From the NCBI GenBank assembly GCA_965231015.1, contig OZ246408.1:280158-344157 (forward strand): a DNA stretch of 64,000 nt. Direction: 5' to 3'. This stretch comes from an uncultured Gammaproteobacteria bacterium (GTDB lineage: Bacteria; Patescibacteriota; Patescibacteriia; UBA9934; CAZDDW01). Of the stretch, positions 3,870 to 52,525 are shown one piece after another. The translations under genes and the position numbers were made by a program. The notes under the pieces were generated by a model that saw nothing but the letters and a program-made list of their open reading frames with translations, made no database searches and had not been told where the DNA came from. Numbering within the stretch: position 1 is the stretch's first letter; each line of letters opens with the position of its first letter.

Positions 3870-4915
3870 CTACTTTTTCTTCTTGTTGGCGGTGCCGAGG
3901 AACTCCAGCCAGCTGATCCAGTCCTCCTTGTAGTACGAGTTGGGGTTCGAGGGGAGTCGTGGATCATCTGTCTTACGGTTACCCTTGTACTGCCCGACAG
4001 CTTTGTACCCAAGTGACCGAGTGGCGGTTCGGGCTTCCTGGTAAGTAGAATACAGTTCTGGGCTTGTTGGTCTTTCTAAGAACTCATCCCAGCTGACCCA
4101 ATCGGAAGCGTACTTTTGCTGCGGGTGACCAGGGAGTCTTGGGTCAGTATTACGACCTTGGAGATATCCTGGATATGTTGTTATCCCGAGAGCACGAACA
4201 GCAGCTCGAGCTTCTTGGTAGGTGGCATACAGTTGAGATTTATTCTTCCTTCCGAGGAAGTCATCCCAACTAACCCAGGTTGCCTTATAGGTCTGCCTTG
4301 GTTCTGAAGGCAATCTTGGGTCGATCCGACGTTTATTCGTATATTCTTTGCTTGTTTGCACTCCGAGCCTCTGTACCGCTGCTCGAGCTTTTTCGTACGA
4401 TTCATACAACGGCAGCTTGGCAGTTCTTCCCAGAAAGTCATCCCAGCTGATCCAAGATTCGTAGAAGGAGTTGGGGTTGGAAGGAAGTAAGGGATCCTCG
4501 TTATACCGCTTTCCATATTCAGTGGTGTTGGTAACACCACCAAGAGCTTGGACAGCAGCACGAGCCTCTTCATAGGTTTTGTAGAAGGTCTTTTTTTGAG
4601 TTCCTAGGAAGTCATCACCGCTGACCCATTCATTCGCATATTTTTTATATGGACTTGCCGGAAGACGAGGGTCTTGTTTGTATCCCGCCTTGTATTCCTT
4701 CATGTCCTTGAACCCGAGGGCCTGTGCGGCAGCCTGAGCCTCAGCGTAGGTGGGGTATTTTATCCGTTTGTTTTCAGTCCCCAAGTAGTCAGGCCAATTT
4801 GTCCAATCGGATGGATATGCCATGCGAGGGGAACACGGAAGTTTGGGATCAGTTTTATATAGAGATTGATACTCCATACAATTTTTTGGTCCCAGCGCTT
4901 GCGCAGCAGCTTGAG
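3870..4915 (-). repeat. Six imperfect tandem repeats of about 175 bp encoding the helicase C-terminal repeat module
   Basis: Periodic recurrence of GTCATCCCAGCTGA[CT]CCA-like cores at about 180-bp spacing (near 4085, 4262, 4440, 4620, 4800) and of the protein motif. Confidence 0.7.
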
Positions 4916-6176
4916 CCTCTTCGTAAGTCTCATAAGGTGTGGTGTTGAGCCGGTCAAGTACCTTCAGGAGGTCCAGGATCTCGGTGGTGAAACCGAGCTT
5001 GAACTGGTTACTCGTGATGTCGATCGTCTTAGGCTTGTCGTCACCTCCACCGTAGTGGGTGACGTCGAGGCCGAGTTCATGAACCGCCAGAATGCGGTCG
5101 CAGTTGGCCACGAAGTCGAGGACCGTGACGTTCAGCTTTTCGGCAGTGCGGCGCAGGCCGCGGCCGAGTTGCTGAAGCCAGATGGTCTTCGAGTCCGTTG
5201 CCCGCAGGAACACGATCAGTTCCGCGTCCGGGATGTCGATACCCTCGTTGAACTTGTCGATAACGAGGAGGGTCTTCAGCTTTCCGGAACGGAAATCGCG
5301 CATCCGTTGCTCGAGGCCACTCTTTCCCACCTTGGAGTGGTACTGACGAGCCTCGGGCATGAGCTTGGCAACACGCCGGGCGTGCTTGATCGAACGACAG
5401 AAGATGATGGTCTTCTTGCAAGCCCTACCGGGCTGTCGTTGATGCTCACGGATGATCCGGACCTGCTCTTCCATCCTCTCCTTAAGGAAGATAGTGTCGT
5501 CTAGCTGCTTGCGCGAAACTGTGCGGTCACCATCTCCAACTCGTCGAATCAGTTCGTGGAGCTGTCGGATATCCAGGTTGTCGGTCAAAAGGTGATAGTC
5601 CACCCGCGCCAGCCATTCATCAGCCGCGATTGCCTTGGCGAGGTCATAGGTGTAAACCTCGTCGCCGAAGATATCGCGAATGTCTCGACCGTCCGCACGT
5701 TCACGTGTGGCGGTCAGGCCAACGAGAAGCAGAGGGTCGAAGTGTCGGATAGCAGGCTCGTAGGTCACAGCCTTGCCGTGATGAGCTTCATCTACCACGA
5801 TGAGATCGAACATGTCGGCCGGGAGGCTCTTGTAGGCAGTGCGCATGGTCTGTAGAGTCGTGAAGACCACTTCAGCACCATTGCAGCGCGCCTGGAAGTT
5901 GTTGGATCCGATGACCACGTGGGTCTCGTGTCCGTGCTCTTCCAAGCTCTCCTTGAACTCGTCGGCATTCTGGGTCGTGATGTCGAGACTATCGACCATG
6001 CACAGAACGCGGTTGATCCCCTCGTTGTGATTGAGAAGCAGTTCAGTAACATGGCTCGCGAGCACGGTCTTACCGAGCCCGGTGGCCATAACGATGAGGG
6101 CCTTGCTAAGACCCTCACTAACCGTCCGCCACAGATTATCTGCAGCTTCTTGCTGGTAGGGTCGTAGAGTTTTCAT
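3870..6176 (-). CDS. SF2 (DEAD/DEAH, SSL2/type-III-res-like) helicase fused to six C-terminal tandem 58-aa aromatic repeats. The ORF extends to 6251, but the likely start is the Met at 6176 (MKTLRPYQ).
   Basis: Motif I GLGKT, motif II VVDEAHH, motif VI QQLGRGLRR. Six repeats follow with consensus Y-x-[ST]-Y-[EQ]-E-A-[RQ]-A-A-[VA]-x-x-L-G ... DPRLP-x-x-P ... W-[VI]-S-W-D-[DE]-F-L-G. Confidence 0.8.
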   Translation of the reverse strand: MKTLRPYQQEAADNLWRTVSEGLSKALIVMATGLGKTVLASHVTELLLNHNEGINRVLCMVDSLDITTQNADEFKESLEEHGHETHVVIGSNNFQARCNGAEVVFTTLQTMRTAYKSLPADMFDLIVVDEAHHGKAVTYEPAIRHFDPLLLVGLTATRERADGRDIRDIFGDEVYTYDLAKAIAADEWLARVDYHLLTDNLDIRQLHELIRRVGDGDRTVSRKQLDDTIFLKERMEEQVRIIREHQRQPGRACKKTIIFCRSIKHARRVAKLMPEARQYHSKVGKSGLEQRMRDFRSGKLKTLLVIDKFNEGIDIPDAELIVFLRATDSKTIWLQQLGRGLRRTAEKLNVTVLDFVANCDRILAVHELGLDVTHYGGGDDKPKTIDITSNQFKLGFTTEILDLLKVLDRLNTTPYETYEEAQAAAQALGPKNCMEYQSLYKTDPKLPCSPRMAYPSDWTNWPDYLGTENKRIKYPTYAEAQAAAQALGFKDMKEYKAGYKQDPRLPASPYKKYANEWVSGDDFLGTQKKTFYKTYEEARAAVQALGGVTNTTEYGKRYNEDPLLPSNPNSFYESWISWDDFLGRTAKLPLYESYEKARAAVQRLGVQTSKEYTNKRRIDPRLPSEPRQTYKATWVSWDDFLGRKNKSQLYATYQEARAAVRALGITTYPGYLQGRNTDPRLPGHPQQKYASDWVSWDEFLERPTSPELYSTYQEARTATRSLGYKAVGQYKGNRKTDDPRLPSNPNSYYKEDWISWLEFLGTANKKKK

Positions 6177-6296
6177 TGTGTAGCCCTTTTGTTGTTTGTT
6201 AAATTGTGAAGAACAAGGGCGTAATTTAGTATAAAAATGGCTTATTGTCAATGGTCTATTGTAATTTTAGCCAAATTTTGATATTATCCTGTCATT

Positions 6297-7619: not shown

Positions 7620-8548
7620 AACCAAAAATAGTTGCGGTGCTTGGACCAACCGCGTCCGGAAAAACTAGTACAGCTATTGCTCTGGCTAAAGAATTTAACG
7701 GCGAGGTGATTAGTGTTGACTCGCGTCAGATTTATAAAGGAATGGATATTGGTACTGCCAAAGAACCGGGGCAGTGGCAAGAGTATGAGGGTGATCGGGT
7801 TCTAATGATCGAAGGGATTCCGCACTGGGGGATCGATTTAGTAGAACCGAATAAAGAAATGAGTGTGGCCGAGTTTAAAGAATATGCCGAGGGCAAGATT
7901 GATGAAATTATTGCTCGAGGCAAATTGCCGATTTTGGCCGGTGGTACTGGTTTTTGGGTTCAGGCGATTGTTGAAAATCTGAAGATTCCTGAAGTTGAAC
8001 CGGACATTGTTTTACGAAAAACCTTAGAAAACAAATCTGTTGACGAATTATTTGCCATGTATCGGGAAAAAGATCCAGTCGGAGCCGAAGCGATCGATCA
8101 AAACAACAAAGCTCGGTTGGTTCGCGCTCTTGAGGTTTGTTTTAAAACCGGACACCCATTCTCCGAACAACAAAAAAAAGGAGAACCAAAATATGATACC
8201 CTGCAGTTGGCAATTGAAGTTGATCGGGATGTGTTATACGACCGGATTAATACCCGGGTCGAACAAATGATTGAAGAAGGGCTGGTCGAAGAGGTTAAAG
8301 GGTTAATTGAAAAATATGGTTCTGTACCAATTGCCATGACCGGCATTGGCTACCGGCAAATAATTGAACATCTAGAAACCGTAGGGGAAAATCATGCTGT
8401 TTCCCTGCAAGACGCGATTGAGAAAATCAAAAAGGACACCCGGAATTACGCTAAGCGTCAGGTGTCCTGGTTTCGTCGTGATGAATCGATTAAATGGGTT
8501 AAGGATGTCGATGAGGCACGGGAAATCTGTAGGGATTACCGCAGGTAA
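7616..8548 (+). CDS. miaA: tRNA dimethylallyltransferase
   Basis: P-loop GPTASGKT followed by the SVDSRQIYKGMDIGTAK motif. RBS AAAGGAG before the ATG at 7616. The ORF-track start 7592 is an upstream extension. Confidence 0.9.
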   Translation: MKPKIVAVLGPTASGKTSTAIALAKEFNGEVISVDSRQIYKGMDIGTAKEPGQWQEYEGDRVLMIEGIPHWGIDLVEPNKEMSVAEFKEYAEGKIDEIIARGKLPILAGGTGFWVQAIVENLKIPEVEPDIVLRKTLENKSVDELFAMYREKDPVGAEAIDQNNKARLVRALEVCFKTGHPFSEQQKKGEPKYDTLQLAIEVDRDVLYDRINTRVEQMIEEGLVEEVKGLIEKYGSVPIAMTGIGYRQIIEHLETVGENHAVSLQDAIEKIKKDTRNYAKRQVSWFRRDESIKWVKDVDEAREICRDYRR

Positions 8549-15444: not shown

Positions 15445-15580
15445 GTCGACCTAAACGGCCTCCCACAGGTTAATTTTCAATTTTGCAATTTTCAATTTTC
15501 AGTTTTCATTGAATTTTCAAATCCCATTTTCAATTTGGTCATTGGATATTCAATCGAAAATTGTAAAATTAAACATTGTA
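15445..15580. repeat. AT-rich intergenic array of TTTTCAATTTT-like units between rplK and rplA
   Basis: At least six degenerate copies of AATTTTCAATTTTCA. The same motif recurs at 51795-51815. Confidence 0.4.
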
Positions 15581-16002: not shown

Positions 16003-16033
16003 AGAATAGATTTAATATGCGTAACAGCTCAAA

Positions 16034-16579
16034 TTAAATCTTTTTAATCTGTAAGAAGTCGAGTTCCACCGGAGTCTCACGACCAAACATACTGACGAGA
16101 ACCTTGATCTTGCCGCGGGCTTCATCGATTTCATCAACCTTGCCCTCGAAGTTCTTAAACGGTCCGTCAATGATGTTGACCGGGTCGCCCGGTTCGACAT
16201 CAACTTTATATTCTGGTTCCTCAACACCCATTCGCTTCTGAAGTGAAGCAATTTCTTCAGGGGCGAGCGGTGTTGGAATGGTTCCAGTTCCAATGAATCC
16301 AGTTACGTTTGGTGTATTTCGCACCACGTACCAAGAGTCATCGGTTACTACCATCTCCACCAGCACGTAGCCGGGGAAGATTTTTTCTTCAACAATCTTT
16401 CGCTTTCCGTTTCGAATCTTAATCTTTTTTTCCTTCGGGATCAAAACATTAAAAATTTTATCCTCCATGTCCATGGATTCAATACGTTGGTGTAAGTTTT
16501 CTGAAACGTTTTCTTCGTATCCTGAGTAGGTGTGAATGGCATACCAACGTCGGCCTTGTTTTGCTGTTTGTTTTGGCAT
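16034..16579 (-). CDS. nusG: Transcription antitermination factor NusG
   Basis: NGN domain (WYAIHTYSGYE) and C-terminal KOW region. Confidence 0.9.
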   Translation of the reverse strand: MPKQTAKQGRRWYAIHTYSGYEENVSENLHQRIESMDMEDKIFNVLIPKEKKIKIRNGKRKIVEEKIFPGYVLVEMVVTDDSWYVVRNTPNVTGFIGTGTIPTPLAPEEIASLQKRMGVEEPEYKVDVEPGDPVNIIDGPFKNFEGKVDEIDEARGKIKVLVSMFGRETPVELDFLQIKKI

Positions 16580-16584
16580 ATGTG

Positions 16585-16660
16585 TAGGGCGCGTCGCACG
16601 TTGCTCGTGGCACGTCGTCTCAGAACGACGAGCGATTTGCGACGAGCGATTTGCTAAATA
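16585..16660. repeat. Intergenic copy of a GC-rich repeat element (GCGTCGCACGT...TCAGAACGACGAGCGA...GCGATTTGC). Related copies lie inside queA (30172-30245) and dinB (50330-50360).
   Basis: Shares a 16-bp exact core TCAGAACGACGAGCGA plus the CGCACGT and GCGATTTGC parts with the queA copy. Confidence 0.5.
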
Positions 16661-16851
16661 TTTATCAATGCGTTCAGACCCTGGTTAAACAACCAGTCCA
16701 GAACGAAAAAGAAAACCCCAACTGCCAAACTAATCCCAATAACCATCAGGGAGTAGCGGGTGGTATCTTTGCGGTTTGGCCAGGTAACTTTACTAAGTTC
16801 CTGCTTTGACTCACTAAAGTATGAGACAATTTTTTGGGCAAAATTAGCCAT
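16654..16851 (-). CDS. secE: Preprotein translocase subunit SecE
   Basis: 65 aa with a single C-terminal TM helix, conserved position upstream of nusG, KVTWP motif. Confidence 0.75.
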   Translation of the reverse strand: MANFAQKIVSYFSESKQELSKVTWPNRKDTTRYSLMVIGISLAVGVFFFVLDWLFNQGLNALINI

Positions 16852-20961: not shown

Positions 20962-21603
20962 TTGATATGTATGAGAAAAGAAGGTCAATTTGAACAAGTG
21001 GTCGATAATTTTAAGGAAACTCCCCGTGTTTTGGTTAGACACCTAACCAGTGTCATTGATCAGGTTAAATCAATCAACCCATCTCAAGACGCCACCGGGG
21101 AAGAACGAAGGGAATTGCAAAAGATGAAAGAAGATTTTTTTAAATCTGTGCATGATGCAATTATGGCCGCGAAAAATTATGGTCAGGCTAAAGCACAACA
21201 TGTCCATGATGTTCAGTATTACCGATATTTGTTGAATGAGCCGGGGCCGGAAGCTCGGTCGAGGTATAAAAAACACATCACAAATGCTGATTCTCGTCGT
21301 CGCACAGCGCATGAAAGAATGATGAGCGAGTTTAATCGTGCCAACCGTTTAGCTAAATTGTTTTTTGATGCCTCAGTTGATCCGGATGAAATTCCTGAAC
21401 AATTTTCTAAAATTAAAGATAGGGTCTTGGAGACTGATTTTGAGAGAGTGGGTTTGCCAAAGAATATTTTTACCCCAAATTCAATCGGCTTAACAACACG
21501 TGAACGCTATGCAGAGGTTGCTGACGGATTAATTGAGGGCTTGGTGGATAAAGAAGAATTATTTGAAAATTTGAAAAAGGGGATTGAGAAGCAAGATCTG
21601 TGA
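20962..21603 (+). CDS. Hypothetical protein (213 aa)
   Basis: ORF with host-like composition. Confidence 0.5.
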   Translation: MICMRKEGQFEQVVDNFKETPRVLVRHLTSVIDQVKSINPSQDATGEERRELQKMKEDFFKSVHDAIMAAKNYGQAKAQHVHDVQYYRYLLNEPGPEARSRYKKHITNADSRRRTAHERMMSEFNRANRLAKLFFDASVDPDEIPEQFSKIKDRVLETDFERVGLPKNIFTPNSIGLTTRERYAEVADGLIEGLVDKEELFENLKKGIEKQDL

Positions 21604-29354: not shown

Positions 29355-30458
29355 ATGAGTACTTCAACTAGCCAATTTGACTACGATTTACCTCCTGATT
29401 GTATCGCTCAAGAGCCAATTGAACCTAAAGATCAATCGAAATTATTGGTTTTAGATAAGGAAACCGGTGATATTCAACACAGCCATTTTTATAAAATTGG
29501 AAGTTTTTTGCGTGACGATGACGTGCTTGTGTTCAATAAGACCAAAGTTTTTAAAGCTCGGTTACAAGGGAAGGCTTGGAAGGCTCGGAAGGCTCGGAAG
29601 GCCGGGGAGGCTCGGAAGGCTTCTGACGTCGAAGTGTTCCTGTTACGCGCTCGCAATAACGGTTGGGAAGCTATGATTCGTCCTGGGCGGAAGGTGCCGG
29701 TAGGATCGAGTATTGAGCTCGAAAGCATGTCTGGAAAAGTGCTCGAGAAACATGAAAACGGATCTGTGTTAATTGATTTCGGAGTTGGAGTCGACGAGGT
29801 ACTCGAATACTGTGACAAGTATGGGGAAGTTCCGACACCGCCTTACGTCAAACAGGCTACAGATGAGGCAAAGTATCAAACAGTTTATGCTGAAGAGGTC
29901 GGTTCTGTGGCCGCTCCAACGGCCGGGTTTCATTTTACGGATCGGCTAATAGGTGAATTACGGGCCCGAGGGATTCAGATGGAATTTGTGACCTTGCACG
30001 TTGGGATCGGGACGTTTCAGCCGGTGAAAACTGAAACACTTGAAGAGCATGTCATGCATGCGGAGTTTGTAGAGATTGATGCAGGAACCGCTATGCGATT
30101 AAATCAAGTTAAAGAACAGGGAAGACGAGTTGTTGCCGTTGGCACGACAACGACTCGGGCGCTTGAGGGTGCCAGCCGCACGTCGCACGTCGCACGTGGC
30201 AAATCGTTTCAGAACGACGAGCGACGAGCGACATGCGATTTGCAGGCTTTTTCCGGTGACGTGAATATCTTTATCACTCCGGGGTATGATTTTAAAATGA
30301 TCGACGCGCTAATAACCAATTTTCATTTGCCAAAATCAACTTTAATCGCCATGGTTTCAGCCCTGTCAGATCGAAAAAACATCCTCAATGCCTACGAAGA
30401 GGCAAAAAAGCATAATTACCGATTCTATTCTTTCGGCGACGCCATGTTTTTACAATAA
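29355..30458 (+). CDS. queA: S-adenosylmethionine:tRNA ribosyltransferase-isomerase, carrying two in-frame repeat insertions
   Basis: FDYDLP...IAQEP N-terminus, C-terminal ITNFHLPKSTL...FYSFGDAM. Insertions sit at about aa 74-90 (KAR repeats) and about aa 275-296 (repeat element). Confidence 0.85.
   Translation: MSTSTSQFDYDLPPDCIAQEPIEPKDQSKLLVLDKETGDIQHSHFYKIGSFLRDDDVLVFNKTKVFKARLQGKAWKARKARKAGEARKASDVEVFLLRARNNGWEAMIRPGRKVPVGSSIELESMSGKVLEKHENGSVLIDFGVGVDEVLEYCDKYGEVPTPPYVKQATDEAKYQTVYAEEVGSVAAPTAGFHFTDRLIGELRARGIQMEFVTLHVGIGTFQPVKTETLEEHVMHAEFVEIDAGTAMRLNQVKEQGRRVVAVGTTTTRALEGASRTSHVARGKSFQNDERRATCDLQAFSGDVNIFITPGYDFKMIDALITNFHLPKSTLIAMVSALSDRKNILNAYEEAKKHNYRFYSFGDAMFLQ
29572..29628 (+). 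repeat. In-frame 9-bp microsatellite (GGCTCGGAA-like, about 6 units) encoding (K-A-R/W/G)n within queA
   Basis: ggcttggaa ggctcggaa ggctcggaa ggccgggga ggctcggaa ggcttctga. Confidence 0.6.
30172..30245 (+). repeat. Copy of the GC-rich repeat element inserted in-frame in queA ((CGCACGT)x3 - GGCAAATCG - TCAGAACGACGAGCGA - CGATTTGC)
   Basis: Shares its core with the intergenic copy at 16585-16660. Contains an 8-bp inverted repeat GCAAATCG/CGATTTGC. Encodes RTSHVARGKSFQNDERRATCD, which is absent from canonical QueA. Confidence 0.55.
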
Positions 30459-37600: not shown

Positions 37601-37750
37601 GCCTCCAGTGAGGTTGAATAGGTCAACCTTGTACCGTGCGCGGCGGTAACCGCGCCAGGCCCGTTTGGCGGGCCGAGTTTCTGTCCCAGGGTTACCAAAG
37701 CGCTGGCCGTCAGGCTGTCGCAAGGATCCCCAAGGATGGAGGGTTTTGGA

Positions 37751-38464
37751 ATGTCAGATTTGTTCAACGTGGGCCACGCGGCCCAACTGCATGAGATACA
37801 GAAGGCGCGCTTGGCGCGCAACGAGCCCGGGATCGGGCCGGAGGTGGAGGAGCTCATCCGGCGCTTGACCTCGGGCGGCGTGGCCGGCAAGGTCGTGGAT
37901 GACATCCGGCTGATCCAGGCCAAGCGGTTCTTCGACCGCGGCTTCGGCCGCGAGCTTGGCCTCAAGGACTTCGCGGCCTACCTCGCGACCATCCCGACCG
38001 TGCCCGAGACGCTCCTCGCGGACGACCCGAACTTCCCGCTCCTCGTCCTCGGCGAGCCCCGCCTCGGCCTTACTCGCGCTTGCGAGCTCATCGGCCTGCG
38101 CTACACGGGCAGCGACCAGACGCTAGTCCCGTTCGACAAGCGTCACGCCGAACCGACCAAGCCGTGGTGGTTCAGCATGCACGACGGCCGGCGCAACCGT
38201 AACCGCAAGCCGAGCGACTGCCGCACGAGCCTCGGTGCAAACGAGATCAGCGCCACGGCTTTGCGTGGAGTCTGCACCTTCCTGCACCACCCGGGCGTGA
38301 TCGTGCAGGGGGAACACTGTGTGGATCTGCCCGGCTCGGTCGACGCCGAGTACCGCGGCTACAACGCCGACCTCGGCATTTGGCGCGACGAGCCGAGGCT
38401 CTACAGAAGCATGAGCGGTTTCGCCGACCTGGACTACGGTTCGGCCTCCTGCCGGGAGTGCTGA
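37751..38464 (+). CDS. DGR target (variable) protein, GC-rich, no signal peptide. The C-terminal approximately 40 aa are encoded by the VR.
   Basis: About 62% GC ORF with RBS GGAGGG. Its 3' 122 bp align to the TR with mismatches confined to TR adenines. Confidence 0.7.
   Translation: MSDLFNVGHAAQLHEIQKARLARNEPGIGPEVEELIRRLTSGGVAGKVVDDIRLIQAKRFFDRGFGRELGLKDFAAYLATIPTVPETLLADDPNFPLLVLGEPRLGLTRACELIGLRYTGSDQTLVPFDKRHAEPTKPWWFSMHDGRRNRNRKPSDCRTSLGANEISATALRGVCTFLHHPGVIVQGEHCVDLPGSVDAEYRGYNADLGIWRDEPRLYRSMSGFADLDYGSASCREC
38338..38459 (+). repeat. DGR variable repeat (VR), 3' end of the target gene
   Basis: 122-bp alignment to 38781-38902. About 27 differences, essentially all at positions where the TR has A (for example TR AAC/AAG/AAC against VR GAC/GAG/CGC). 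The 3' 25 bp are identical, consistent with an IMH-like anchor. Confidence 0.75.
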
Positions 38465-38492
38465 ATCTCGATCCTGGTTCTCTTGTATCTTT

Positions 38493-38533
38493 CCGCCCCC
38501 AAGGCTAACCTCGGGGGCGGTATCTTTTTTCTT
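38493..38533 (+). terminator. Intrinsic terminator after the target gene
   Basis: CCGCCCCC aaggctaacct CGGGGGCGG followed by TATCTTTTTTCTT. Confidence 0.6.
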
Positions 38534-38780
38534 AAAACTTTGTTCAAATTTATTTGAAAGTAGGGTAATGAATTGCAGATTAAGGTTCGCAGTCCCCGAA
38601 ATCCTCGAAAGAGTTATCGCCAGAGTCATGTATTTTACGGAATACATGGGCGCGCGATTCGGACGAGTCACTCCTTGCTGAATTCTAGCGGGGATATGCC
38701 CCGGAATGAAATACAACAGCAACCTTCCCGGTGAAAGAAGCTGTGGTGAATGCGGGTGAGATTCAGCAATAAGTGAGGGC

Positions 38781-38902
38781 GGTCAACGCCAAGTACCGCG
38801 ACGACTGCGCCTACCTCAACATTTGGAACGACGAGCCGAAGCTCAACAGCAACAGGAACGACAACGCCAACCCGAACTACGGTTCGGCCTCCTGCCGGGA
38901 GT
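38781..38902 (+). repeat. DGR template repeat (TR), non-coding and adenine/AAC-rich
   Basis: Read in the VR frame it gives VNAKYRDDCAYLNIWNDEPKLNSNRNDNANPNYGSASCRE with many AAC codons. No ORF covers it. Confidence 0.75.
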
Positions 38903-38914
38903 AACTTGATCCGG

Positions 38915-38944
38915 AAAACGCTCCAAACAAGGGCGTTTTTTTAA
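38915..38944. terminator. Bidirectional intrinsic terminator between the TR and the 3' end of avd
   Basis: AAAACGC(T)CC aaacaa GGGCGTTTT, with A/T tracts on both sides. Confidence 0.5.
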
Positions 38945-39289
38945 CTATAATGACCGTTGCCAGCCGCCAAGCATTTGGCCGATTTTCTGCAGCCGTTCTT
39001 CAAAGTCAAGATATTGTTTTTCGGTTATGATCTTGATTTCGAAAGCCAGACGAAATAGCACTTTAAGGAGGTTATTTTTCAGAATAGCCTGTTTGATCGG
39101 CGCGATTTTGAACTCGCGCTTGGCGTTTCCGGCTTCGATGATTGAGACGAGCATATTTAGCACGGTTTCCTCGATCTTGCTGCCCAAGGTGTATTTTTCA
39201 GCCTTAGGGAATTTGGCGCGGATGAGATGAAAATCCTTGAGCAGGTCGAACGCCAGCTGAAAGACTGGCGCTTCATTGATTGAATACAT
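38945..39289 (-). CDS. avd: Avd-like accessory variability determinant (four-helix-bundle / 23S rRNA IVS protein family)
   Basis: 114 aa, helical. FPKAEKYTLGSKIEETVLNMLVSIIEAGN ... GGWQRSL matches the family pattern (FPK.E.Y.L..Q..R...SI..NIAEG ... GGW). Its start codon abuts the RT start on the opposite strand (CAT|ATG). Confidence 0.6.
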   Translation of the reverse strand: MYSINEAPVFQLAFDLLKDFHLIRAKFPKAEKYTLGSKIEETVLNMLVSIIEAGNAKREFKIAPIKQAILKNNLLKVLFRLAFEIKIITEKQYLDFEERLQKIGQMLGGWQRSL

Positions 39290-40279
39290 ATGTTTGAACA
39301 GATTATTTCTTCAGAGAATATGTTTTCCGCTTGGCGCGAATTCCGCCGCGGCAAGAGGGGGCGAAGAGACGTTGCCGAGTTTGAGTGTAGCCTTGAAGAT
39401 AACATCTTTGCTTTGCGTGAAGATTTGGCGAGTGGTCGGTACAAGCACGGGCCGTATCAGCGGTTCCATATTTTTGATCCCAAGCACCGCATTATTCATA
39501 AAGCCAGTGTGCGCGATCGGCTGGTGCACCATGCAGTTTATCGAGTCCTGTATCCTATCTTTGAACAATCTTTCATTTACGACAGTTATTCCTGTAGGAT
39601 CGGTAAAGGTACACATGCAGCTGTGAGCAGACTTCAGACCTTTGTTCGTAAAGTAAGCAAGAACTACACTAGTCCGTGTTGGGCCTTGAAGTTCGATATC
39701 AAAAAGTTCTTTGATTCCGTTGATCATAATATTTTGCTCAATGTGCTTAAACAAAAAATCTCCTGCCCTAAGACAAACCGTCTGTTGGCGGAGATCGTGA
39801 ACAGTTACTTAAGTTCAAATTCCGTTGGGGGGGGGGCGATACTTAGAACCATTCGCGCGAAAGGTCTACCGATAGGAAACCTAACTTCTCAATTATTTGC
39901 CAATGTTTATTTAAATGCATTTGACCATTTTATCAAAGAAACAGTCAGAACCAAGTATTGTCTAAGATACACTGATGACGCTCTTATCATCCACCAAGAT
40001 CCCCAATACCTCAAACTCCTCATCCCCTTCATCCAACACTGGCTTTGGCAAGAGAGAAGATTATGCTTGCACCCAAATAAAACCTCTGTCCGAAAATTAT
40101 CTCAAGGTATTGATTTCTTAGGTTATGTCACTATGCCACACTATAGAGTATTAAGGACTAAAACAAAAAGACGGATGTTAAACATTATTTGTGAGGATAA
40201 TTTGGTGTCGTATGCTGGCCTTCTCAAGCATTGCTCGGGGCATGAATTGATCAAGACAATTTATGGTATAATATCGTAG
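39290..40279 (+). CDS. Diversity-generating-retroelement reverse transcriptase
   Basis: N-terminus MFEQIISSENMFSAWREFRRGKRGR. RT motifs FIYDSYSCRIGKGTHAA, LPIGNLTSQLFANVYLN (DGR-specific SQ variant), the catalytic RYTDDALI box and QGIDFLGY. Confidence 0.85.
   Translation: MFEQIISSENMFSAWREFRRGKRGRRDVAEFECSLEDNIFALREDLASGRYKHGPYQRFHIFDPKHRIIHKASVRDRLVHHAVYRVLYPIFEQSFIYDSYSCRIGKGTHAAVSRLQTFVRKVSKNYTSPCWALKFDIKKFFDSVDHNILLNVLKQKISCPKTNRLLAEIVNSYLSSNSVGGGAILRTIRAKGLPIGNLTSQLFANVYLNAFDHFIKETVRTKYCLRYTDDALIIHQDPQYLKLLIPFIQHWLWQERRLCLHPNKTSVRKLSQGIDFLGYVTMPHYRVLRTKTKRRMLNIICEDNLVSYAGLLKHCSGHELIKTIYGIIS
39827..39836 (+). repeat. G10 homopolymer inside the RT ORF (encodes VGGGA)
   Basis: ccgttGGGGGGGGGGcgat, counted directly. 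Confidence 0.6.
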
Positions 40280-49276: not shown

Positions 49277-49854
49277 GACGTATTCAAAGTTATAAGGGGA
49301 TGAGTCGTCCAAAAAAGAAAAAATTGCCATGGTACTATTTGGTAATTGCTTTAGGAGTTGTTTTGTTTGTGATCGGTTTTGTTTGGTTGCGTTCCGGTGA
49401 CAGAAAACAAGATGTGATTGACGAAATGACAGATGATTTATTCGCCGGTTCAACCGAAACCTTGGAAACTGATATTGAGCCTTCTGTACCAACCATGGAA
49501 GCAAAAGAAACCATTGATTTAGAGGATGTCACCGGAGGAGATTCAGTTGGTATTGCTACTCGAGAAATTCAAGATGGACTATTTAGACATACTGTAAAAG
49601 CAACTTTACCAGATTCAGCTGAAGACGAGTTTTACGAGGGGTGGTTGGTTCGAGGTACACCGTTTGATTTCTTTTCTACCGGTGATATGGTTACAATTTC
49701 AACCGGAGAGTATGTTTTAGAGTGGTTTTCCGGCGAAGCCGGACCAGGCTCTGCCTGGGGTGAATACGCGGACTACACGCAAGTTGTGATTACTTTAGAG
49801 CCGGACGACGGTGACCCAGCTCCGGCCGCCCATGTACTCGAAGGTGAGTTTTAA
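49273..49854 (+). CDS. Membrane-anchored hypothetical protein (193 aa)
   Basis: Basic N-terminus, one TM segment, acidic extracytoplasmic region. Confidence 0.5.
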   Translation: MRRIQSYKGMSRPKKKKLPWYYLVIALGVVLFVIGFVWLRSGDRKQDVIDEMTDDLFAGSTETLETDIEPSVPTMEAKETIDLEDVTGGDSVGIATREIQDGLFRHTVKATLPDSAEDEFYEGWLVRGTPFDFFSTGDMVTISTGEYVLEWFSGEAGPGSAWGEYADYTQVVITLEPDDGDPAPAAHVLEGEF

Positions 49855-51071
49855 GCCCAGTCGTCAAAGTGAAAGCCGCTGGAGCGTTCCTTGAACTCGA
49901 CTTTAAGTAAAGAGGCCCGAGTCCAGGAATGGTTGCCGTACCGAGTTTGAATTTTATCCAATGCAGAAACAACCTTCTGCATTTTTTGGTCTTTGGGGAA
50001 CAGATGTATTTGTTCCGGGCCTTGAGTTAGTCGTCCAGCCGTGAGTCCGAGTAGACGAACCGGTTTATTAGGATCTCGAAATTTAGAAATAAGTGACCAA
50101 GCAATTTGAAACAATCTAAGCCCATCGCTTATGGGTGCCGAAAAGCGTTTTATTTGTCCACTACCGGTGAAATCAGCGTAACGCACGTAGGCCGCAATTT
50201 CTCGGCAAAAATAACCTTCACGACGCAGCCGCCACCCAACTTTGTCAGCCAGTCCAAGCAAATTTCGTTTCATCTCGAGCGGATCCCACACGTCGCTCGG
50301 CAGAGTGTAAGAGTGCCCCATGGATTTGGGCTCGTCGCACGTCGCACGTCGCACGTCGATCGGGGCATCATCTCGCCCGTGCGCGGCTTCATGTAACCAA
50401 AAACCGTAACTTTTAAATTCGGATACAAGATCATTGAGCGGATAAGCTCGCAACTGCTCGACCGAGTATATGCCGAGCATATGTAAACGCCTCTCGATCT
50501 TTCGTCCGATTCCACAAAAGTCACTAAGCTCGACCGAATCGAGTAGTTTGGGTACGTCACGCGGTTTGACCACGATTAGTCCGTCCGGTTTTTCTATTTC
50601 TGAGGCCAGCTTGGCAATTAGCTTGTTTGGTCCAATTCCAACCGAGCAGGTGACACGAACTCCACATTCTTCACGGATTCGAGCTTTAATCATCCTGGCT
50701 ATTAATGTTGCACCCATATAATCATGAGCCTGGTGTGTGACGTCGAGAAAAGCTTCATCAACAGAAAATTGTTCAACCTGATCAGTGAACTCGTGAAAGA
50801 TATTGAGAAACGTATTCGTGATGTGGTAGTACTTACTCGAGTCTCCGGAAACCAAAATAAGACTCGGAATAATTTTTCGCGCTTCCCAGTTACTCATGGC
50901 AGTTTTTACACCCATTCGTTTAGCCTCGATTGAGGCCGCTGCTACCACCGCTCGGGACTCTCGTTTCCCGGTGACACCAATAGGTTTTCCACGCAAAAAC
51001 GGATTCGCTTGTTGCTCTACACTCGCGAAGTAACTATTCATATCCACATGCATAATTATCCGTTCATTCAT
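49851..51071 (-). CDS. dinB: DNA polymerase IV (Y-family), carrying an in-frame repeat insertion
   Basis: IMHVDMNSYFASVE N-terminus, SIDEAFLD catalytic motif. The (CGCACGT)x3 repeat at 50335-50355 encodes VRRATCD. The start is probably at MNERII. Confidence 0.85.
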   Translation of the reverse strand: MNERIIMHVDMNSYFASVEQQANPFLRGKPIGVTGKRESRAVVAAASIEAKRMGVKTAMSNWEARKIIPSLILVSGDSSKYYHITNTFLNIFHEFTDQVEQFSVDEAFLDVTHQAHDYMGATLIARMIKARIREECGVRVTCSVGIGPNKLIAKLASEIEKPDGLIVVKPRDVPKLLDSVELSDFCGIGRKIERRLHMLGIYSVEQLRAYPLNDLVSEFKSYGFWLHEAAHGRDDAPIDVRRATCDEPKSMGHSYTLPSDVWDPLEMKRNLLGLADKVGWRLRREGYFCREIAAYVRYADFTGSGQIKRFSAPISDGLRLFQIAWSLISKFRDPNKPVRLLGLTAGRLTQGPEQIHLFPKDQKMQKVVSALDKIQTRYGNHSWTRASLLKVEFKERSSGFHFDDWA

Positions 51072-51134
51072 ATCTGTGTGTTCATATCTGCCCACTGAAG
51101 CTTTAGCGAGGGTGGGTCGATGTGCATGATGATT

Positions 51135-51383
51135 CTATCCATCCGTGTATAGTTCCACAATTCGCCATTCTAAAAATTCCGGGTCGAAACGAAGTTTAAA
51201 ATAATTAGTTAGATCTGAAACCGAGAAATAAAAAACTCGCTTAGTGCCTTCGCGAGCGTGGTGCACCATGTTGACCTGCTTAACTTGATATTTTTTTCCA
51301 TTCCATTTAAAAACTCGCGGGGCAACACGTTTACCCGCAAATATAACAGATACATCGATTGGGTCATTGATTATTTCGTACAT
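51135..51383 (-). CDS. Small hypothetical protein (82 aa), first gene of the dinB operon
   Basis: ORF directly upstream of dinB on the same strand. Confidence 0.45.
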   Translation of the reverse strand: MYEIINDPIDVSVIFAGKRVAPRVFKWNGKKYQVKQVNMVHHAREGTKRVFYFSVSDLTNYFKLRFDPEFLEWRIVELYTDG

Positions 51384-51608
51384 GTGATGTAGGGGTTAAT
51401 TGCATTAACCCTTTAGACACAGAAACCGCAGATAAAAGATCTACGATTTCGTGTTACCCCTGTCCGACCGGTTTTGCCGGGCGGAAGAAAGTCCGTCATC
51501 ATGTTCTGGTCCAGACCCAAGTGGGAGGAGATGAACCCGGGCAGAACAAGAGATAACAGACTTCCTCCCGCCCTCAATAAATGACTTTATTGGCGGAGGC
51601 TCCCAAGA

Positions 51609-51767
51609 TTAAAAAGAACGAGTGAGCAAAGTACGGGTCATTTGTTTAAAACGACGTCGACTCAGCCGAACATTCATGCGACGGCGCACGCGTTCTGCTT
51701 TACGGACACTGCGCAAGGGCATAAAGGACATGGTGGCGTCATAATGACGCATGGTAGTGGATGACAT
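51609..51767 (-). CDS. Unannotated small basic protein (52 aa, MSSTTMRHYDATMSFMPLRSVRKAERVRRRMNVRLSRRRFKQMTRTLLTRSF)
   Basis: Perfect RBS AGGAGG 5 nt upstream of the ATG. Below the 60-aa cutoff of the ORF track. Arg-rich. Confidence 0.4.
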   Translation of the reverse strand: MSSTTMRHYDATMSFMPLRSVRKAERVRRRMNVRLSRRRFKQMTRTLLTRSF

Positions 51768-51883
51768 AGGCCTCCTAAATTAATTATCAATTTACAAATT
51801 TTCAATTTTCAATGAAGGTGGGTGGCTTTAAACAACCGTGAGTGCTCGGAAATCTCAACAGTTATTAATTTTTAATTATTAGT

Positions 51884-52525
51884 TTACACGGTTGCGAATT
51901 TACGAATCACAGCGCGGACAATTCCTTGAATGTTTAGGTCACCCTTAACAATAATCGGTTGCATGGTTGAATTAGCCGGTTGTAAACGAATACTGTTGCC
52001 TTCTCGGTAAAATCTTTTTAAAGTTGCGTAAGCATTATCAAGAAGAGCAACGACAACGTCTCCGTTTTTTGGTGATGGATTACGTTCAATGACTACATAA
52101 TCGCCATCAAAAATTCCGTCTTCGATCATGGAGCGACCCTTTACCTTTAAAACATATGAATTGTCAGAATCAACCACGAAATCACTTGGTACGGCCATGG
52201 CTTCCTTATCTTCAATCGCTTCAATCGGTTCACCCGCAGTAATTATGCCAGCCAAAGGAAGCATTAGGGCTGGAGCTGTGTTGGTTGCAGCTTTGCTTTC
52301 TGGATTTTCATCAACTATTTCCAGATTACGGGCACAACCGTCTGCACTGGCCTCGAGAACACCTTTTTCGCAAAGGGCTTGAACATGTTGGTGAATGGTT
52401 GATGGGGAAGAGACACCAATGTTGGTAGCGATTTCTCGGTATGATGGAGCGTACCCGCGGTCTTCACTGTATTTTTTAATAAAGTCCAGAACCTCTTTTT
52501 GTTTTTTAGTAAGTGGGGGAGTCAT
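51884..52525 (-). CDS. lexA: LexA repressor
   Basis: N-terminal winged HTH (LTKKQKEVLDFI), Ala-Gly cleavage region, S24 peptidase Ser/Lys (VKGRSM ... KRF). Confidence 0.85.
   Translation of the reverse strand: MTPPLTKKQKEVLDFIKKYSEDRGYAPSYREIATNIGVSSPSTIHQHVQALCEKGVLEASADGCARNLEIVDENPESKAATNTAPALMLPLAGIITAGEPIEAIEDKEAMAVPSDFVVDSDNSYVLKVKGRSMIEDGIFDGDYVVIERNPSPKNGDVVVALLDNAYATLKRFYREGNSIRLQPANSTMQPIIVKGDLNIQGIVRAVIRKFATV

Follow-up and report, generated by a model that had tools for sequence, protein, structure and literature searches.

A palindromic repeat with heptamer-array arms, resembling REP and RPE elements, in an operon spacer and inside queA of a Candidatus Uhrbacteria genome

The genomes of CPR bacteria (Patescibacteria) are tiny and thought to be streamlined. 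We asked what a short repeat is doing in such a genome, that of a Candidatus Uhrbacteria member (Patescibacteria/CPR; genome ~1 Mb, GC ~45%), where it turns up between secE and nusG, inside queA and, in part, inside dinB. In the 64-kb stretch of DNA that we analysed (hereafter the window), there are exactly two occurrences of the 16-mer TCAGAACGACGAGCGA, at 16620 and 30209, in the two places where long copies had originally been noted; shuffled sequence is expected to give 0.04 matches even with two mismatches allowed. These positions fall in two full copies of one element that are 83% identical in an ungapped alignment (16589-16654 versus 30178-30243). Copy A (16592..16654, + strand; nhmmer E=1.5e-19) fills the spacer between secE (16654..16851, - strand) and nusG (16034..16579, - strand). 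Copy B (30175..30243, + strand; nhmmer E=1.9e-18) lies in frame within queA (29355..30458, + strand; PF02547), the gene for tRNA preQ1(34) S-adenosylmethionine ribosyltransferase-isomerase, and encodes SRTSHVARGKSFQNDERRATCD(L). At a third place, 50330..50358, a solo heptamer tract, (CGTCGCA)x3.7, matches the left arm of the element (E=3.4e-6) and encodes IDVRRATCDE within dinB (Y-family DNA polymerase IV; 49851..51095). The + strand is thus the common orientation of all three sequences, and since dinB, like secE and nusG, is on the - strand and queA on the + strand, the tract is antisense to dinB; this orientation had been predicted, as had the preservation of the reading frame at both coding sites.

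The original prediction had also placed three CGCACGT units at the core of every copy, which holds for the queA copy and dinB but not cleanly for copy A, whose heptamers read CGCACGT TGCTCGT GGCACGT, with the left-hand GCAAATCG missing. Tandem Repeats Finder reported (CGCACGT)x3.6 and (CGACGAG)x2.6 in the queA copy (period-7 arrays at 30177 and 30215), a 14-nt unit x2.1 in copy A with degenerate heptamer units at 16595, and (CGTCGCA)x3.7 at 50333-50358 in dinB, so that tandem 7-nt units are present at several unlinked loci of one genome. A search of the window for (CGCACGT)2 with up to two mismatches gave 9 matches against 0.20 expected, all of them at the three reported places. A possible further copy at 21297-21358 (nhmmer E=0.014) was rejected, as it resembles ordinary coding sequence, and a profile search of the 9.5 kb upstream of the window found none. 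The tally is two full copies and one partial copy in 73.5 kb of the host genome and two full copies in 35 kb of a relative, the metagenome-assembled genome (MAG) GCA_018812725.1; the known full copies therefore number four, from two genomes.

The repeat is real: two full copies share one interrupted hairpin, and a heptamer tract accompanies them. That the genome is metagenome-derived is all that speaks for an assembly or chimeric artefact, or for chance similarity, and we give this explanation practically no weight. Contigs from SRR7048225 and SRR7048221 (Logan) carry an identical queA with its element, an identical QueA protein is encoded on a 1,002,985-bp NCBI contig, and the copies of the second genome recur in GCA_018812725.1, GCA_018824525.1 and SRR2544004. 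Because identical queA copies occur in independent assemblies, the repeat is not an assembly artefact, and the shuffle statistics given above (0.04 and 0.20 expected) count against chance similarity.

Each full copy is an imperfect palindrome in which the left arm, (CGCACGT)n, pairs over the whole element with units of the CGACGAG type in the right arm, written (CGACGAG)n or (CGACGAGCGATTTG)n, around a short loop (TCAGAA or similar); every heptamer contributes six Watson-Crick pairs and one A.A mismatch. The internal inverted repeats that had been noted are borne out by RNA folding, which gives a long imperfect hairpin for both long copies in the window, with z-scores of -2.9 and -3.9 on the + strand and of -5.6 for the queA copy on the - strand. 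The two copies from GCA_018812725.1 fold in the same way, and folding energies of the copies range from -36 to -46 kcal/mol. The consensus fold of the four copies is one hairpin of 20-25 pairs, interrupted every 7 nt, with a loop of 6-13 nt. No compensatory base changes were found in this consensus, so the hairpin rests on conservation rather than covariation. The copies are 69-83% identical in pairwise comparison and, bar single-base variants in the second genome, have in common a non-repetitive core and fixed ends: the core AACGACGAGCGA is present in three of four (a one-base variant, TTGACGAGCGA, being found in the nusG-side copy of GCA_018812725.1), and the ends are G(T/G)CGCACGT and GCGATTTGC, the latter again in three of four (a one-base variant, GCGCTTTGC, in the queA copy of that MAG). 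Across the element, four or five of its six frames are free of stop codons.

The secE-nusG-rplK region allowed filled and empty sites to be compared, in relatives whose secE-nusG regions were obtained through a NusG search. In gene orientation copy A starts right at the secE stop, the last base of the stop codon being also the first base of the copy as mapped, and ends 12 nt before the nusG ATG; the 74-nt spacer reads TAG|CAAATCG...GTGCGACG|CGCCCTACACAT-ATG. A close relative (L140; NusG 99% identical in protein and 88% in DNA) has an empty site of 10 nt, TAA-CGCCCTTTCT-ATG, and the insert in the window is therefore ~62 nt. A copy is thus present where the original prediction put it, at 16585-16660, but by the relative's empty site its extent is 16592-16653/4. 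The same spacer is 1 nt long in the more distant GCA_018812725.1 (contigs L147 and L003 both belong to this MAG), and in a sister-lineage contig (L144; NusG 98% identical) it is 57 nt long and holds an unrelated AT-rich inverted repeat. The next spacer, between nusG and rplK, is empty in the window (16003..16033, - strand; 31 nt) and measures 27 nt in L140 and L144; the homologous spacer of GCA_018812725.1 is 72 nt long and filled by the fourth full copy (L147 5562-5623; profile E=2e-14, later 2e-19), which begins directly past the stop codon with the GCAAATCG end (TAA|GCAAATCG). The filled or empty status therefore differs among relatives at two operon spacers, and the two genomes have the queA site in common and one private site each in the same operon. 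Copies have been gained or lost at individual sites. A check for target-site duplications had been proposed, and it came out negative: comparison of the filled and empty secE|nusG sites gave no duplicated bases beyond a possible CG, and neither flanking repeats at the other copies nor a flanking motif shared by the four junction pairs was found.

The AT-rich repeat in the secE|nusG spacer of the sister lineage is an inverted array of another heptamer, (GTTAATG)n/(CATTAAC)n. It has GTTAATGGTTAATAGAT in common with a tandem array that precedes rpsB in that organism (the loci concerned are L144 2543-2599 and L006 9040-9075), and it may represent a family of repeats or else a promoter.

The clustering in one operon raises the alternative that the copies are old, vertically inherited functional hairpins of the secE-nusG-rplKA operon (mRNA stabilising or processing, or protein-binding) that have been selected and then lost in some lineages, with the queA copy as a by-product. 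Both intergenic copies do lie in this operon, right behind a stop codon and in the same orientation to transcription, and the sister lineage has a different inverted repeat in the very same secE|nusG spacer. Against this, the spacer that holds the operon copy is not the same in the two genomes, and in L140 both are short. The fold has no covariation, Rfam at gathering thresholds matched nothing anywhere in the window (which has no tRNA either), and no U-tract follows the hairpin, so that it is not a terminator. A history of gains takes 3-4 events, and ancestral presence with losses only takes roughly twice as many. One copy moreover lies within an ORF and another tract is antisense in dinB. 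We consider this alternative unlikely; a further point in its favour comes from queA.

In queA the ORF is intact with the element inside it, and the peptide had been predicted to be extra relative to canonical homologues, inserted in a tolerant surface loop. Solved structures (1yy3, 1vky) and the nearest relative agree on ~16 added residues (+15 to +17 and +16, respectively). In the AlphaFold model (mean pLDDT 79) residues 280-298 are coil, with pLDDT <50 at 282-292, so the segment is predicted to be disordered. The loop is also hypervariable, 9-47 aa long in the 118 proteins in which it was measurable among the 120 closest QueA proteins. Three relatives illustrate this range of states: in P0003 (78% identical; DNA L008) a short loop, GAASAPGKIESFSG, takes the place of the GASRTSHVARGKSFQNDERRATCDLQAFSG of the window; P0002 (76%; L006) carries a small perfect palindrome of another sequence, GGGCAAGG-CATA-CCTTGCCC; and P0004 (65%; L003, GCA_018812725.1) has a homologous element in the same place, frame and orientation as the window, with exactly 11 nt between its right junction and the conserved GGY GAC codons that follow. 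Counting the L006 sequence (7798-7860), palindromes unrelated to the element occur in the QueA loop of four other Uhrbacteria (the others at L137 10832-10912, L138 10814-10900 and L139 10793-10927), one of them folding at -69 kcal/mol. Hairpin DNA has repeatedly landed, or been retained, in this loop.

Many QueA-loop peptides resemble translated common GC-rich palindromic repeats (PFEGEGRGEV, FDFAQGKLRE, CHPERPKGVEGS). Possible traces of the element in the QueA loops of P0017 ('KTSHMGRSS'), P0007 and P0016 had weak local alignment scores that were not significant after multiple testing, and we regard them as no more than a lead. The queA of the window has a further in-frame repeat, (GGAAGGCTC)x5.9 at 29569-29621, which encodes KAWKARKARKAGEARKA and adds ~12 residues in another homologue-variable QueA loop; it is absent from the solved structures.

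The two genomes' queA copies agree in right junction, frame and orientation and are 77% identical, at a distance at which third codon positions of queA are 38% identical, that is, with synonymous sites saturated. This favours a selected hairpin, and the identical junction, frame and orientation fit one old insertion as well as they fit targeting. Sequence comparison indicates that the element has been kept far better than neutral DNA between the two diverged genomes; with copies 69-83% identical against 38% at queA third positions, it is either a recent arrival at each site or under constraint at the nucleotide level.

The dinB tract behaves differently. It encodes the linker between the HHH/thumb domain, which ends at residue 242, and the IMS_C little finger, which starts at 256. 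Compared with solved DinB structures this linker has 4 extra residues, which agrees in part with the prediction that VRRATCD is an insertion. Among the closest homologues obtained (<=63% identical), however, linkers are 10-20 aa long, mostly 1-3 aa shorter than the 14 aa of the window protein, and a clean 7-aa insertion is not apparent against them; because the length is within the homologue range, the heptamer run of 26-28 nt mostly replaces linker sequence. A comparable case occurs in another member of the Patescibacteria (STC_25; L084 1636-1667), where (CGCACGT)x4 lies in frame in pgi (glucose-6-phosphate isomerase) and encodes QRATCDVRRATT; relative to PDB 2q8n it brings no net increase in length. 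In a Saccharibacteria genome the same tract is found just after frr (L019 3028-3052).

The gene dinB belongs to an SOS-type cassette with lexA and a DUF6504 gene (49851-52525, - strand), and an arginine-rich ORF of 52 codons starts at ~51765, between lexA and the DUF6504 gene. Upstream of a small ORF that lies downstream of lexA, and upstream of rplA, there are (AATTTTC)n arrays (51780-51813 and 15470-15508, respectively) that are 88% alike. We rejected these as a second heptamer family, as in gene orientation TTGAAAATTGAAAATT...GGAGGCC resembles a sigma-70-type promoter followed by a ribosome-binding site.

Scanning the contigs of species-representative genomes with the left-arm pattern GTCGCACGTYGCWCGTSGCA showed that such heptamer arrays are widespread: among the matches listed there are >118 stretches in >100 species representatives of at least ten phyla, with Acidobacteriota, Gemmatimonadota, Planctomycetota, Chloroflexota, Bacteroidota, Actinomycetota, Proteobacteria, Saccharibacteria and Patescibacteria among the taxa and two other CPR genomes among the carriers. 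Most of the listed arrays are degenerate and direct (GCACGTC, GCACGTA, GCACGTG, GCACCTC) and apparently intergenic, often on several contigs of a genome; in Porticoccaceae such arrays make up inverted termini adjacent to REPs of the GTAG type. A profile check found the Uhrbacteria element core in none of the listed arrays, and the heptamer dimer did not occur in the literature searched. Heptamer repeats as such are over-represented in bacteria, in families like GGGAATC and TAACTGA that are sometimes inverted and whose dispersal mechanism is not known (PMC4692102, PMC4679880).

Such data invite the explanation that nothing transposed, the copies being heptanucleotide simple sequence repeats (SSRs) that arose by polymerase slippage at hairpin-prone sites and were homogenised by gene conversion or template switching, like STRR, GGGAATC and TAACTGA. 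The arms are indeed tandem 7-mers; the (GTCGCAC)n array recurs in the >118 listed stretches across many phyla and in the two other CPR genomes (in one of them in pgi); the dinB and pgi tracts replace sequence and do not add to it; heptamer SSRs are over-represented and at times inverted in bacteria (PMC4692102, PMC4679880); and the sister lineage has its inverted array of a different heptamer, GTTAATG, in the spacer. Slippage, however, cannot put the same 62-nt unit into unlinked spacers, and the dispersed copies have more than heptamers in common, namely the core AACGACGAGCGA in three of four, the 16-mer TCAGAACGACGAGCGA in both window copies, and the fixed end GCGATTTGC in three of four with GCGCTTTGC in the L003 copy. 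We regard this explanation as doubtful, to about the same degree as that of the functional hairpins. More doubtful still, and in our judgement quite improbable, is the idea that palindromes made of heptamer arrays, and solo tracts like (CGCACGT)3-4, are written across phyla by a dedicated sequence-specific process, a new class of templated or targeted deposition of repeats, rather than by REP/MITE-type transposition. It would accommodate the GTCGCAC arrays in >100 species representatives of at least ten phyla, the tracts held by loops in three CPR proteins with replacement instead of addition in DinB and Pgi, and the inverted array of another heptamer at the very same spacer in the sister lineage.

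No transposase of any kind and no insertion sequence (IS) was found in the 64-kb window, and no REP-associated tyrosine transposase (RAYT) in the window or the 9.5 kb upstream. In wider searches, a six-frame peptide query built from three copies matched only the two QueA proteins that carry the element among 5.8 billion proteins, in a search that diverged copies escape; a scan of JGI metagenomes with GTCGCACGTN{10,40}AACGACGAGCGA gave 9 chance-like matches with no likeness beyond the specified bases; and two pattern scans of viral contigs, re-scored with the element profile, gave no real copy. A RAYT was found in the sister Uhrbacteria lineage (L144 5651-6172, - strand; 96.7 bits against NCBIfam REP_Tyr_transpos, cut-off 80), flanked by inverted hairpins, GGCAGGGTCCCTTGACCCTGCC and AGCGGAGTCAAGGGACCCCGCT, that are unrelated to the window element. 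It has no counterpart at the syntenic place in the window, and it means that REP/RAYT systems exist in the Uhrbacteria clade.

Other repeats in the window belong to separate systems. A diversity-generating retroelement (DGR) occupies 37736-40279, with a variable repeat (38337-38459) at the 3' end of the ORF 37736-38464, a template repeat (38780-38902), bAvd (38945-39289, - strand) and a reverse transcriptase (39290-40279); 16 of the 24 mismatches between the repeats fall on template adenines. A link between the DGR and the element was rejected, as they have only a 7-mer in common. A helicase (ResIII / SWI2-SNF2; 3870-6251, - strand) ends in five C-terminal 'integrase repeat' units (PF14882), which recur in the DNA every 174-180 nt between 3895 and 4628.

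Taken together, the element probably represents a lineage-restricted family of non-autonomous palindromic repeats (~60-66 nt) that is mobile and REP/REPIN/RPE-like. The original reading of a REP/MITE-like miniature element that tolerates insertion into loops is supported by the filled and empty sites, the extra copy in the second genome, the common hairpin and the hypervariable QueA loop, as a matter of resemblance and not of membership. Such an element would spread as DNA through its own hairpin, moved in trans by the product of a gene elsewhere in the genome. The foremost candidate would be a REP-associated IS200-like Y1/HUH tyrosine transposase, which acts on single-stranded hairpins without target-site duplication; this type of mobilisation is suggested by the way the hairpin is built, by the lack of a target-site duplication and by the RAYT found in the sister lineage. 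Insertions would survive only at harmless positions: spacers directly after stops, the surface loop of QueA and the interdomain linker of DinB. The translated peptide would be a passenger and not an adaptation, and the dinB tract may be a solo or degenerated arm. Counting against a mobile family, the full copies number four in two genomes with no within-species insertion polymorphism seen, and tracts with little or no length gain, as in dinB and pgi, are not what simple insertion would lead one to expect. On the same side stand the junctions, with neither target-site duplication nor common flanking motif, the window without a transposase, the 9.5 kb upstream without another copy, the wider searches described above, the hairpin without compensatory changes and the unrelated hairpins around the RAYT of the sister lineage. 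Simple transposition does not fully account for the dinB and pgi tracts, for the identical queA junction or for the concentration of copies in one operon.

If the family is self-propagating, selfish hairpin DNA surviving in queA, dinB and the secE-nusG-rplKA operon would still be shaping CPR proteins, and the element may account for part of the lineage-specific insertions that hamper annotation and alignment of these proteins. The QueA loop would serve as a natural catalogue of palindromic elements and a ready marker to date their activity. Were a RAYT or another enzyme tied to the family, REPIN-type biology would extend to CPR, and there would be a second system besides Rickettsia for the absorption of palindrome-encoded peptides by proteins.

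Comparison with known systems shows where the element stands. The accounts we consulted document two precedents, the RPEs of Rickettsia and REPs within genes, repair genes among them (PMC10969869, PMC3733652). Like the RPEs as presented in PMC10969869 (after Ogata et al. 2000, 2002), the element is a dispersed palindrome in a small, reduced genome with no known transposase, having intergenic copies as well as in-frame copies in housekeeping genes that add peptide at fold-compatible positions. The RPE descriptions in that source, of alphaproteobacterial families of ~100-150 bp with dozens of intragenic copies per genome, set it apart, as the element is ~62 nt long, is made of heptamer arrays and has one clear in-frame full copy per genome seen. 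It is like REP/REPIN-RAYT systems (PMC3116915, PMC3337134, bioRxiv 10.1101/2021.07.10.451892) in that what may be a pair of inverted short repeats forms one long imperfect hairpin, lies just past stop codons in operon spacers, makes no target-site duplication and is conserved over long vertical descent (REPINs are known for long vertical persistence; bioRxiv 10.1101/2021.07.10.451892), and in that a RAYT exists in a sister Uhrbacteria lineage. Unlike them, it shows no GTAG tag or RAYT in 73.5 kb, and its arms are tandem heptamers in all four copies, not recognisable single REP palindromes. REP/REPIN-RAYT systems are further marked by tens to hundreds of copies in a genome and by a single-copy RAYT gene with the repeats on its flanks.

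CGTC-tagged and intragenic REPs (Di Nocera et al. 2013, PMC3733652) offer a further likeness, being CGTC-rich, located within genes and without a known dedicated transposase; intragenic REPs are often found in DNA replication and repair genes, and their dimers encode 20-30 aa in linkers and loops (PMC3733652). In the published definition of these REPs (PMC3733652) the terminal CGTC is unpaired, the stem measures 8-9 bp and opens with A-T pairs, the loop has 4-5 nt and the tail is CCA, whereas the element has an interrupted stem of 20-25 bp, a loop of 6-13 nt and no CCA tail. In the four copies GTAG is absent from the ends and CGTC occurs only inside paired heptamers. With MITEs (Correia, ERIC, BOX, Nezha; PMC10969869) it has in common that it is short and non-autonomous, with inverted ends and possible in-frame fusions; MITEs have target-site duplications and an identifiable parental IS (PMC10969869), neither of which was found for the element in the window. 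We therefore do not assign it to a named family, as it fits neither the GTAG or CGTC definitions of REPs, nor the size of RPEs, nor the duplications of MITEs. Like the dispersed heptamer families (cyanobacterial STRR, Xanthomonas GGGAATC, Beggiatoa TAACTGA; PMC4692102, PMC4679880), it has tandem 7-nt units at unlinked loci, which in those families are many. Arrays of those families are mostly intergenic, open-ended and direct, sometimes inverted (PMC4692102, PMC4679880); the element, in contrast, is a defined ~62-nt unit with a unique core and fixed ends that also occurs inside ORFs. Selfish palindromes are known from Rickettsia and from REP elements, and what is new here is the lineage and the form.
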